This document shows positions 50,447 to 52,539 of a stretch of DNA of 64,000 nt, in pieces. The notes under the pieces were generated by a model. It made no database searches and was not told the origin of the DNA. It worked only from the letters and a program-made list of their open reading frames with translations. Origin of the DNA: an uncultured Alphaproteobacteria bacterium (GTDB lineage: Bacteria > Pseudomonadota > Alphaproteobacteria > CAAGCB01 > CAG-977); assembly GCA_944392845.1 (NCBI GenBank), contig CALXYE010000072.1, positions 25,558-89,557 of the forward strand, written 5' to 3'. Positions within the stretch are counted from its first letter, which is position 1. Each line of letters starts with the position of its first letter. The position numbers and the translations under genes are program-made.

Positions 50447-51106
50447 TCAGCGGCGCGCGGCTGCTATGGTTTTAACGTAAGGTATCATTTCAATGACGTT
50501 TTTATTTTCCTGCTTTTTCGAATTGTCGTTTTCGGGCGGAATATAAACCATATTGTCCGACCACGGCAATTTTACCCGCTTCGTTTCCCCCGCCTGCATT
50601 TGAGCAACCTGAGGATCCAATACCCGATGGTGCAGTTCGTCGTGCGGCTTGATCGGCATCAAAATAAGATTTGAAAATTCGTTCAGCCCGCCGCCGTGAA
50701 TCGGCAGCTTGTGGTGAACGTTATAACCGTTCGGGACGCTTCCTTTTTTCATCTGTTCGATTTGCTTGTCCGTGATGCCGATGGCGCGCAATTCTTTTTG
50801 ACAGTTTTGCGCGATATGTTTTACGAATTTGTCGCGAACGGAATTAAACGCGCCGCGCCGCCGTTTCCGCGTCCTTTTATCGGGAACGCTGTATTCAACG
50901 TCAATCAGTTTGAATCCGTTGATCGTATCGAATTTGAAACGCCCTCTTTCGGCGTTCAGCCGTTCGGAAGATTTGGGACGTTTTTTCTTTCTGCGCTTTT
51001 TTCCCGAAGCTTCGGAGTCGCGAGAGTCGCGAACAACATCCGCGCGCTTTTTGTGTTCGTATCTGTTTTGCCTGTTCGTTGTTGTCATGACCTGCCGCCT
51101 TTGCAA
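50447..51106 (-). CDS. Stand-alone colicin E9/E7-type HNH DNase domain protein (paralog 1) with a basic Lys/Arg-rich N-terminal region. The start is uncertain: TTG at 51106 or ATG at 51088.
   Basis: The C-terminus NGYNVHHKLPIHGGGLNEFSNLILMPIKPHDELHH matches the colicin DNase HNH motif. The preceding region (FNSVRDKFVKHIAQN...) matches the N-terminal part of the colicin DNase domain. Confidence 0.7.
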   Translation of the reverse strand: MQRRQVMTTTNRQNRYEHKKRADVVRDSRDSEASGKKRRKKKRPKSSERLNAERGRFKFDTINGFKLIDVEYSVPDKRTRKRRRGAFNSVRDKFVKHIAQNCQKELRAIGITDKQIEQMKKGSVPNGYNVHHKLPIHGGGLNEFSNLILMPIKPHDELHHRVLDPQVAQMQAGETKRVKLPWSDNMVYIPPENDNSKKQENKNVIEMIPYVKTIAAARR

Positions 51107-51160
51107 AAAATCATTCCTTAATTATGATTTTTGCATAAAAAATATTTTTTGTCTAATTTT

Positions 51161-51745
51161 TTATCTTATTTTTTGAATTTTTCGCAAAACAGCGGCTTGA
51201 AGTGGCGGTTTTTCAGCGTTTTGCGTTTTTTCCTCCTGTTTCGGAGGAATAAAAACATTGCCTGACGGCAGGGGTATTTTAACGACGGCACGTTCTCCGT
51301 CCTTGAGGACACAGATTTGAGGATCAAGTATTTTATGCAGATCTTCATGATACGGATCGTTTTTGATCAGAATAAAATTATCAAAAACGTTTAATCCGCC
51401 GCCGGCCAAAGGGATCTTGTGATGCGTGTTATATCCGTTCGGAGACATGCCGCGCTTCATGTTTTCAACGGCTTTGTCCGACAGTCCCGCTTTTTTCAAA
51501 GCGGGATACTGCGTTGTCGCCAGTATTTTCAAAAACTCTTTGCGCGCCGTTGTAAATTCGCGTCTTAACTCCCTGACCTTCCGACGGGGAACGGCGACAT
51601 AAGGCGCTTCAACGACGGGAATACCGTGGATTGATTCGGGAATGGCGCGAATCTTTTCCAAACGGTCTTTTTCTTTTTTCGCGGCGCGGAGGGCGTTACG
51701 TTCCTGTTGCGTCAGCTTTTGTCGGACAAGCTCGCTCATTTCCAA
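51161..51745 (-). CDS. Stand-alone colicin-type HNH DNase domain protein (paralog 2)
   Basis: PNGYNTHHKIPLAGGGLNVFDNFILIKNDPYHEDLH, with the same architecture as the neighbouring paralogs. Confidence 0.7.
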   Translation of the reverse strand: MEMSELVRQKLTQQERNALRAAKKEKDRLEKIRAIPESIHGIPVVEAPYVAVPRRKVRELRREFTTARKEFLKILATTQYPALKKAGLSDKAVENMKRGMSPNGYNTHHKIPLAGGGLNVFDNFILIKNDPYHEDLHKILDPQICVLKDGERAVVKIPLPSGNVFIPPKQEEKTQNAEKPPLQAAVLRKIQKIR

Positions 51746-52539
51746 TATTCCCGTTTTTGTTTGATTAGTGAAAGTAAGGTTTTGCCTTTTTGTTTTTTCT
51801 GCCGTTCCGCCCGTTCTTTCAGTTGCTTCTCTTTTATTTTCTGGCGTTTTTTTTCAACGGCCAGGCGCTGGGCTTCGCGTTGTATCGGCAAAAAGCGTTC
51901 ATGAGGCACGAACACGCCCTTATCCGTTTTCGGGATTTTGATCATAACGGATTCGCCCTCTTTGATGCCGCGGATCTGCGGGTTGATGACTTTGTTGTGC
52001 AGATCGTCGTGGTAAGGGATTCGCCGAATCAGGACAAGGTTTGAAAAATCGTTCGTTCCGCCGCCGTGGATGGGCACCATGTGATGCGTGTTAAAGCCGT
52101 TCGGCGTGTATCCGTGCCTCATGCCTTTTATTTGCTTTAAGGTAATGCCCGCCGCGCGCAGTTCGTTGAATTTCGTTTTTGCCAAATGCTTCAAAAAGGC
52201 GGCGCGGACGTTCAGTTCGAAATCCTTGCGGCGTTCTTTCCGTTCTGCCAGCGACGGCACCTTAAACTCCGTCATAACGCAGGGGATGTCATAAACGCTG
52301 TCGGGGACGTCTTCGGGCTTCAGGCGCTCCGATTTCGGCATCTCCGCCAGCTTTTTAGCCATGGACTGGCGAAGTTCCTCATCCTTGGTTTGCAACGGCC
52401 GCTTTTTATGGACGTAGTAATAGGGTCTGTTTTTTTTCGACCGTTTTTTGGATTTGCGCTGAGGCGCAAAGGCTTTTTCTTCAAAGCTCATGGCAACGTT
52501 CCCGAAAATCTTTCTTCTTTTAAATAAAGAGTATATCAT
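51736..52539 (-). CDS. Stand-alone colicin-type HNH DNase domain protein (paralog 3) with an extended basic C-terminal tail
   Basis: PNGFNTHHMVPIHGGGTNDFSNLVLIRRIPYHDDLHNKV. The C-terminus is KQKIKEKQLKERAERQKKQKGK... Confidence 0.7.
   Translation of the reverse strand: MIYSLFKRRKIFGNVAMSFEEKAFAPQRKSKKRSKKNRPYYYVHKKRPLQTKDEELRQSMAKKLAEMPKSERLKPEDVPDSVYDIPCVMTEFKVPSLAERKERRKDFELNVRAAFLKHLAKTKFNELRAAGITLKQIKGMRHGYTPNGFNTHHMVPIHGGGTNDFSNLVLIRRIPYHDDLHNKVINPQIRGIKEGESVMIKIPKTDKGVFVPHERFLPIQREAQRLAVEKKRQKIKEKQLKERAERQKKQKGKTLLSLIKQKREYWK

Follow-up and report, generated by a model that had tools for sequence, protein, structure and literature searches.

Why would a gut bacterium keep several compact nucleases on its chromosome when the same catalytic domain forms the end of secreted toxins in many other proteins? 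This question is raised by a 64,000-nt stretch of contig CALXYE010000072.1 (assembly GCA_944392845.1) from an uncultured member of the Alphaproteobacteria, here called the window. A sequence-only reading had pointed to three tandem minus-strand genes, which it took for colicin E9-type HNH DNases without immunity genes. The present analysis retains the three genes (paralogs A, B and C), adds a fourth that had been overlooked (paralog D, 56762..57385, plus strand), and places a SUKH/YrhA-family gene directly after it. With confidence evenly poised, we propose that these genes encode stand-alone HNH DNase effectors that are neutralised by a shared SUKH protein and exported by a route that reads their C-terminal tails. 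Secretion as effectors had already been suggested, and such a role is plausible.

The nuclease domain and its toxin relatives

The tandem genes are paralog C (51736..52491, minus strand, 251 amino acids), paralog B (51161..51739, minus strand, 192 amino acids) and paralog A (50447..51088, minus strand, 213 amino acids). Their relatedness is confirmed by 36–42% pairwise amino acid identity with BLASTP E-values of 1e-37 to 1e-42, far above chance. Paralog D (207 amino acids) is 46–51% identical to paralog A. The lengths reported before (219, 194 and 267 amino acids for A, B and C) had to be corrected by the choice of start. Longest open reading frames (ORFs) extend to 51106, 51745 and 52539, and database proteins together with gene calls on identical contigs make 51088 (A), 51739 (B) and 52491 (C) the most likely starts. 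Paralog A is then the same as database protein P0001. For paralog C, gene callers give 249–251 amino acids on identical contigs, and the hidden Markov model of the family matches it with E = 4e-62.

All paralogs share a domain of about 135 amino acids. It had been described as the C-terminus, but a basic tail of 25–80 amino acids comes after it. Invariant across the paralogs are G[YF]N.HH..P..GGG.N.F.N and a later H..LH, with R..F..R..F.K..A upstream; the HNH core of paralog C reads HHMVPIHGGGTNDFSNLVLIRRIPYHDDLH. The identification as HNH nucleases stands, as the catalytic and metal-ligand positions (HH, N, N, H and H) either do not vary or reach at least 90% conservation among 65 family members and the paralogs possess the beta-beta-alpha metal core with its catalytic His and metal-ligand Asn/His. 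An AlphaFold model based on 65 homologs has a predicted local distance difference test score of about 98 over residues 40–185 and disordered ends. The proteins are, as noted before, compact and basic with disordered N-termini and without a trafficking domain.

The description as colicin E9-type holds for the HH/N/H/H site, which is colicin-like, but not for the family assignment. Both colicin models of Pfam matched paralog A only and remained below threshold (PF21431 Col-Pyo_DNase, 14.8 bits with a cut-off of 27; PF12639 Colicin-DNase, 15.4 bits with a cut-off of 25). An hhalign comparison with the colicin E9 DNase covered 71 columns at only 41% probability. This alignment does reach the upstream F..FR helix, the segment that had been likened to the N-terminal part of the colicin domain. 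Structural comparison scores were 4.5 for colicin E9 and 4.4 for colicin E7, and the colicins were not the nearest fold neighbours. A profile search of the PDB gave matches confined to the 35-amino-acid HNH core, and Foldseek against PDB and BFVD returned nothing at E < 0.01 and weak HNH matches only. The generic HNH model PF01844 scored at best 19.4 bits (paralog C; cut-off 21.4) and did not match paralog B; the family is too divergent for it. Two PHROGs without assigned function match at about 1e-10 and PHROG HNH families match weakly, while NCBIfam gave only noise for the HNH paralogs and the PADLOC defence models found no known defence family. By homology and predicted structure the paralogs have an HNH (His-Me finger) nuclease fold and form their own unnamed family, distantly colicin-like, and paralogs A to D are predicted to cleave DNA. 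Three proteins from the representative search (P0127, P0128 and P0143; 468–519 amino acids) have two tandem HNH domains, the first of which has RH in place of HH; this first copy may be an inactive DNA-binding or regulatory module.

An exhaustive profile search found the domain in 1117 cluster representatives, and in many of these it occupies the extreme C-terminus of Rhs, LXG, PT-HINT, Tox-PAAR-like, PT-TG or Mu-portal (MuF) proteins. Among phages, tblastn matched SPbeta-like Bacillus phages only. Phage SPR encodes a 628-amino-acid LXG protein (spr_26) of which the C-terminal ~110 amino acids are the domain, with the SUKH genes spr_27/28 next to it. The first of these, directly downstream, belongs to the same subfamily as the SUKH gene of the window (E = 9e-10). 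The nuclease domains of these LXG (type VII secretion) toxins and of the paralogs are 35–40% identical (E 1e-14 to 1e-17), and the similarity takes in the region before the core as well. The LXG protein ends right after the core and within a secreted protein, whereas the paralogs are stand-alone proteins of 190–250 amino acids with an N-terminal motif and a tail, several to one SUKH gene, and are inherited vertically on a Gram-negative chromosome. A 1411-amino-acid Rhs protein of Photobacterium lutimaris (L073) likewise ends in a homologous domain, with a SUKH gene of the same subfamily 7 nt downstream. It connects the family to the HNH toxins of Rhs and PAAR-like type VI secretion systems (e.g. 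Salmonella Rhs2-CT, PDB 9t38/8cm0), from which the paralogs differ by the lack of an Rhs shell and of a PAAR or VgrG-linked delivery domain; genes for type VI secretion were likewise not seen. Colicins E9/E7 and pyocins S2/AP41 have in common with the present case HH...N...H...H on a beta-beta-alpha metal fold and a small acidic protein that neutralises the nuclease, or would do so here. However, the putative inhibitor of the paralogs is a SUKH protein and not a four-helix Im protein, both colicin models stay sub-threshold, and receptor-binding and translocation domains, a lysis gene and a plasmid or SOS setting are all absent. More generally, the domain is common to multi-domain toxins with varied trafficking modules, as is typical of polymorphic toxins (Zhang et al., 2012; PMC3482391). 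The paralogs lack an N-terminal trafficking domain (no Pfam domain lies N-terminal of the core and the first ~35 residues are disordered) and, in contrast to polymorphic toxins, neither vary from strain to strain nor turn over rapidly: divergent metagenome-assembled genomes (MAGs) keep the same ortholog groups and synteny.

The pairing of an HNH toxin with SUKH immunity is well described (Zhang et al.; PMC3113570), so the claim that the arrangement is new cannot be upheld for the pair as such. This HNH family did not match any Pfam model named in that study. For the stand-alone, multi-paralog and vertically conserved form with a single immunity gene we found no description in the literature searched, and searches on SUKH, HNH and polymorphic toxins, RF32, CAG-977 and DUF6782 gave no account of the family or of the biology of the lineage. 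Tox-REHH (2026 preprint) was considered as a match and rejected, as it is a different, non-homologous DNase.

The SUKH gene, conserved synteny and the three-gene array

The SUKH gene (57509..57970, plus strand) starts 123 nt after the stop codon of paralog D, with 57509 as the best start, and encodes 153 amino acids. It matches NCBIfam NF038335 with 103.4 bits (cut-off 55; E = 1e-29) and Pfam SMI1_KNR4 with 26.2 bits (cut-off 25.4). Its isoelectric point is 4.1, and that of the nucleases is about 10. This protein is probably an immunity protein that inhibits the nucleases. The sequence-only reading had stated that immunity genes are absent. This is correct within the three-gene array, but not for the locus as a whole, and the further statement that cognate inhibitors do not exist is contradicted by the same SUKH subfamily beside paralog D, the phage LXG toxin and the Photobacterium Rhs toxin. 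SUKH lies immediately 3' of every D-type gene and never of A, B, C, E or F types; neither A, B and C nor the E/F pair of related genomes (see below) is followed by a cognate immunity gene.

The SUKH gene is also the most conserved gene of the region, with a nonsynonymous divergence (dN) of 0.017 from L001. Rates were compared by dN and amino acid identity, as synonymous divergence was saturated and makes dN/dS ratios unreliable. SUKH is 98% identical to its CAG:977-like ortholog in L001, 84% in L005 and 82% in L006, compared with 89%, 74% and 74% for QueA, 87% for FtsK (L001; the gene lies outside the L005 and L006 loci), and 71–84%, 45–60% and 49–66% for the HNH paralogs A–D. Paralog D is 99% identical to its ortholog P0095. 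In L032, from a sheep-rumen MAG, paralogs D and B are gone without remnant and SUKH is kept with 81% identity. Its persistence without D fits a role of one SUKH inhibitor for several nucleases. Chromosomal nucleases that are held harmless by a dedicated acidic inhibitor are known from barnase–barstar and Anabaena NucA–NuiA, and in this they would resemble the present case. They differ in having Sec signals and one nuclease per inhibitor, and their folds and families are unrelated. Orphan YrhA/SUKH genes were observed in a Treponema sp. MAG (L080, 8001–8456) and a Prevotellaceae MAG (L081, 8001–8459). They are 53–62% identical to the SUKH of the window, and no HNH gene of the family lies within 8 kb of them. 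These genes may represent horizontally acquired immunity in co-resident gut bacteria, which suggests that gut communities are a place where this toxin family is deployed.

All close homologs of the nucleases are 180–300 amino acids long and come from uncultured gut, rumen and faecal Alphaproteobacteria (‘Acetobacter sp. CAG:977’ and UBA, HGM and RGIG MAGs). Cluster look-up and a profile search that included distant members yielded MAG or metagenome proteins only, with no homolog from a cultured or characterised organism. The survey of related genomes showed that the gene order C-B-A, pheA, an outer-membrane protein gene, TerC, Hsp20, DUF1150, DTW, D, SUKH and queA is conserved across increasingly distant genomes. 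Close relatives contain an extra pair, E/F (about 250–290 amino acids), at a third locus, which brings the family to about six ortholog groups per genome; clustering of the ORFs that flank E/F revealed no recognisable secretion or adaptor genes. The dN values of the HNH genes are within the range of neighbouring housekeeping genes. On this comparative evidence the stand-alone genes are real, under selection and vertically inherited in the lineage. DNA similarity among the paralogs is confined to the catalytic core and the duplications must therefore be old. Copy number drifts within the lineage, since the pheA-side array holds four tandem HNH genes instead of three in L010 (4505–7482; UMGS1574) and two in L032, where D is missing. 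Two side observations concern the synteny block. The Hsp20 gene and the small DUF1150 gene that follows it (55203–55948 in the window) are an unremarkable pair that keeps its place between TerC and the DTW-domain gene in all relatives. L025 and L067 (CAVCSV01, labelled Limosilactobacillus gorillae) carry the alphaproteobacterial HNH/SUKH block, and this bin is probably contaminated or mislabelled.

The array itself is tightly organised. The stop codon of paralog C is overlapped by the ATG of paralog B, as ATGA, which suggests that translation of B is coupled to C. A promoter-like site precedes paralog A (51127..51155, minus strand; TAGACA-17-AAAAAT with an upstream TG; a consensus match only), and another precedes paralog D (56682..56711, plus strand; TTGTCA-18-TAAAAT, 10 of 12 positions matching). 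Directly 3' of the stop codon of paralog A lies a GC-rich hairpin followed by a T-run (50400..50432, minus strand), which is probably the terminator of the C-B-A transcription unit. Between A, B and C and across the 275 nt before the tRNA gene there are no ORFs of at least 40 amino acids except antisense ones. This neighbour, tRNA-Gly(GCC) (50098..50172, minus strand), had been pointed out in the earlier description. It indeed lies 275 nt beyond paralog A in the window, but the adjacency occurs only in the closest relatives and is missing in L005, L006 and L011, and for this reason it looks incidental and without a functional tie. The surroundings are otherwise housekeeping, as had been stated, for the whole of window positions 17–62 kb.

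Beyond the tRNA, the stretch up to the thioredoxin-TPR gene (49100–50100) has a low GC content (0.38 compared with ~0.52), and in CAG:977 its place is taken by an outer-membrane beta-barrel gene; the stretch has the look of a small variable islet beside the tRNA. A 118-amino-acid ORF in this stretch (49381–49737, minus strand) was considered as a hidden immunity gene and rejected, as it has no family matches and is confined to contigs of the same species.

Termini and the basic tail

The nucleases have extensions on both sides of the domain, which the Rhs and LXG homologs lack, and no Sec signal or transmembrane segment was found in any paralog. All six ortholog groups start with M-x(2-10)-[YF]-x-H-x-K-R and a Lys/Gly-rich stretch. 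The motif reads RYEHKKR in paralog A, where KKRRKKKRPK follows, YYYVHKKR in C and NYTHQKR in D, and is degenerate in B. No other ORF family in the related loci carries [YF]xHxKR, and as it is unique to the HNH family in the loci scanned, we rejected it as a signal common to other families.

The C-terminal tail behaves differently. It consists of an amphipathic segment rich in Ala and hydrophobic residues that is followed by R-x-G-R at the C-terminus. The last residue is Arg in 111 of 119 family members (93%), 70 of the 119 end in GR, and the last 20 amino acids have a mean charge of +4.2. Paralog A ends in ...KTIAAARR and paralog D in ...VKQKADGR. The Lys-rich tail of paralog C ends in ...KQKREYWK in this species and not in Arg, while its orthologs end in ...KQNKGR or ...KKSKGR, so the consensus appears locally degraded and constraint on C could be relaxed here. 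At the DNA level the four genes have unrelated 3' ends, and a DNA repeat or a terminator artefact was therefore rejected as the source of the tail. In P0156 the HNH domain is followed by an inserted alpha/beta hydrolase domain and only then by the tail, which is still at the very end.

Similar tails occur on other enzymes. A 14-residue scoring matrix was trained on HNH tails only and reached a null maximum of 11.5 in 29,940 windows. In related MAG loci it gave family-level scores of 14.8–17.5 for one adenosine deaminase and two DUF6782 putative metallopeptidases. A metagenome scan for DUF6782 yielded 41 gut loci (L082–L122, in addition to L056, 832–4722, and L031, 7718–8851) with 74 distinct copies, 56 of which end in Arg or Lys. 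The score exceeded the 99.9th percentile of the null for 25 of the 74 copies and for 1 of 808 other ORFs. The DUF6782 proteins have an HExxH motif. Their genes stand in tandem, up to about 4 at a locus, in the gut alphaproteobacterial lineage that also carries the HNH paralogs, and most copies share the basic tail. They weakly resemble Peptidase_M91, the NleD-type effector family, with a sub-threshold match. As the tail is present on this second family of the same lineage, it may be a modular export or translocation signal. The adenosine deaminase (L005, 15803–17074; PF00962, E = 2.6e-73) has a C-terminal extension of ~65 amino acids that ends in ...TASKLALIAQKQGGR; it could be secreted, or it could speak against an export function of the tail. 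In L059 (1525–2619 and 7229–8899; also in L063) an HNH paralog stands between a Zn-dependent phospholipase C that lacks a signal peptide and an RNase J-like metallo-beta-lactamase protein, both with tails (...SLGR or ...MHGR) that weakly resemble the HNH tail.

Arg-rich, positively charged C-terminal signals are attributed to substrates of the Agrobacterium VirB/D4 type IV system in PMC8525350 (citing Vergunst, 2005). According to the same text, VirF, VirE2 and VirE3 have unstructured, hydrophilic, Arg-rich extreme C-termini on otherwise unrelated proteins, a likeness that we treat as analogy only. The tail described here differs in its stretch of Ala and hydrophobic residues and in R-x-G-R. 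The VirB/D4 signal consensus is R-x7-R-x-R-x-R, which is not the consensus of the present tail.

Effectors or domesticated nucleases

How could these elements work together? Paralogs A–D are members of a lineage-specific set of stand-alone HNH DNases. C, B and A would be expressed as one transcription unit, with B coupled to C, a possible internal promoter for A and termination after A. The single acidic SUKH protein encoded after D would bind and block all of the basic nucleases, and this shared role would account for SUKH being conserved more strongly than any other gene of the region. The C-terminal tail would be read by an export route, and the DNases would be released or injected without a Sec signal. 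Their targets would be the DNA of competing bacteria and, less likely, that of host or protist cells. A wider scheme is conceivable and we offer it only tentatively: an undescribed pathway could read the amphipathic Ala/hydrophobic and R-x-G-R tail and accept as cargo about six HNH DNases per genome, the DUF6782 arrays and possibly the phospholipase C and the adenosine deaminase, one SUKH ‘master immunity’ protein could cover all six DNases, and the DNases, whose basic N-termini look like nuclear localisation signals, could act as genotoxins on host or protist nuclei as well as on rival bacteria.

Several observations weigh against the effector proposal. Firstly, vertical inheritance, conserved synteny and purifying selection are unlike typical polymorphic toxins, which vary between strains. 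Secondly, two environmental contigs carry a solitary stand-alone homolog among housekeeping genes, with no SUKH gene within 10 kb. Thirdly, the tail-bearing adenosine deaminase and RNase J-like protein could be ordinary cytoplasmic enzymes, and the basic tail could bind DNA or membranes or serve as a degradation tag. Lastly, no secretion apparatus is encoded in window positions 17–62 kb, where all genes are housekeeping, and tblastn with VirB4 and TraG of pTiC58 found no match in 1.54 Mb of related loci, which is a few percent of each genome and too small to count as evidence.

These points lead to the alternative that survives best, which we consider possible though less than probable. The proteins could be domesticated intracellular nucleases that act on the nucleoid of the producer, in repair or recombination, in the degradation of foreign DNA, or as a toxin–antitoxin-like module for abortive infection or stress. 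SUKH would then be a regulator and the tails DNA-binding arms or proteolysis tags. This would agree with the retained synteny and orthology, with evolutionary rates equal to those of neighbouring housekeeping genes, with a core chromosomal context free of mobile-element and secretion genes and with the solitary homologs that lack SUKH. An isoelectric point of about 10 and Lys/Ala-rich tails are reminiscent of nucleoid proteins, and the N-terminal motif is specific to the family. However, the closest relatives of the domain with a known architecture are exported toxins, the partner SUKH is of the immunity type, and PADLOC detected no known defence family. Six catalytically intact nucleases of a non-specific type would be an odd housekeeping set. 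The presence of the same tail on the NleD-like DUF6782 arrays, and possibly on the Zn phospholipase C, is ill explained by DNA binding, and the orphan SUKH genes found in gut bacteria of other phyla suggest that these meet the toxin from outside.

A second alternative keeps export and changes the target. The DNases could be genotoxins that are translocated into host or protist cells together with the NleD-like peptidases and other tail-bearing enzymes, with the Lys/Arg-rich N-terminus (KKRRKKKRPK) as a nuclear localisation signal. The basic N-termini do resemble such signals, the lineage is confined to animal guts and the rumen, and high conservation is more in keeping with a conserved eukaryotic target than with warfare between bacterial strains. 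The tail on DUF6782, with its weak likeness to the Peptidase_M91 ‘effector protein’ family, points in the same direction, but that match is sub-threshold. Basic stretches would be just as likely in proteins that bind DNA, an injection system was not seen, and the orphan SUKH genes of co-resident bacteria point to bacterial targets. It seems unlikely that eukaryotic cells are the main target, and this idea is in any case a sub-case of the effector proposal in which the target alone differs.

Very unlikely, in our view, is that the genes are silent orphan cassettes, i.e. promoter-less C-terminal modules stored for recombination into a full-length polymorphic toxin elsewhere. Arrays of stand-alone toxin cassettes are common at polymorphic toxin loci (PMC3482391), and the tandem genes without trafficking domains look similar. 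Yet every gene has a start codon of its own and a conserved, family-specific N-terminal extension, there are promoter-like sites, an ATGA overlap for coupling and a terminator, and the orthologs have been under purifying selection over a long divergence. Moreover, there is no immunity gene per cassette, similarity of the paralogs restricted to the core leaves no shared recombination tract, and the window contains no Rhs, CdiA or LXG gene. Finally, prophage-remnant HNH homing or packaging endonucleases, for which weak PHROG HNH matches and BFVD fold matches to phage HNH proteins (all E > 0.01) might speak, are effectively refuted by context and homology: significant phage relatives are limited to the LXG toxin C-termini of SPbeta-like phages, the neighbourhood contains no phage genes, the chromosomal position is kept across genera and a SUKH partner is present.

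The combination of an HNH toxin and SUKH immunity is a textbook case of warfare between bacteria. What is unusual here is, firstly, a toxin without a delivery domain in about six conserved paralogs; secondly, a lone immunity gene with a slower rate of evolution than housekeeping genes; and thirdly, a candidate modular C-terminal signal that also occurs in another expanded hydrolase family. Usually immunity genes are many, turn over fast and pair one to one with their toxins. Here this pattern is reversed, and the lineage offers a natural test case for one inhibitor covering a diverged nuclease family. Neither Pfam nor NCBIfam has a model for the nuclease domain despite more than 1000 cluster representatives, and defining it would help the annotation of Rhs, LXG and MuF proteins. 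For ‘Acetobacter sp. CAG:977’ and its relatives, a prevalent uncultured lineage of the human gut, the tail provides a testable handle on protein export and, if it is true that the effectors reach host cells, the DNases would be candidate commensal genotoxins.

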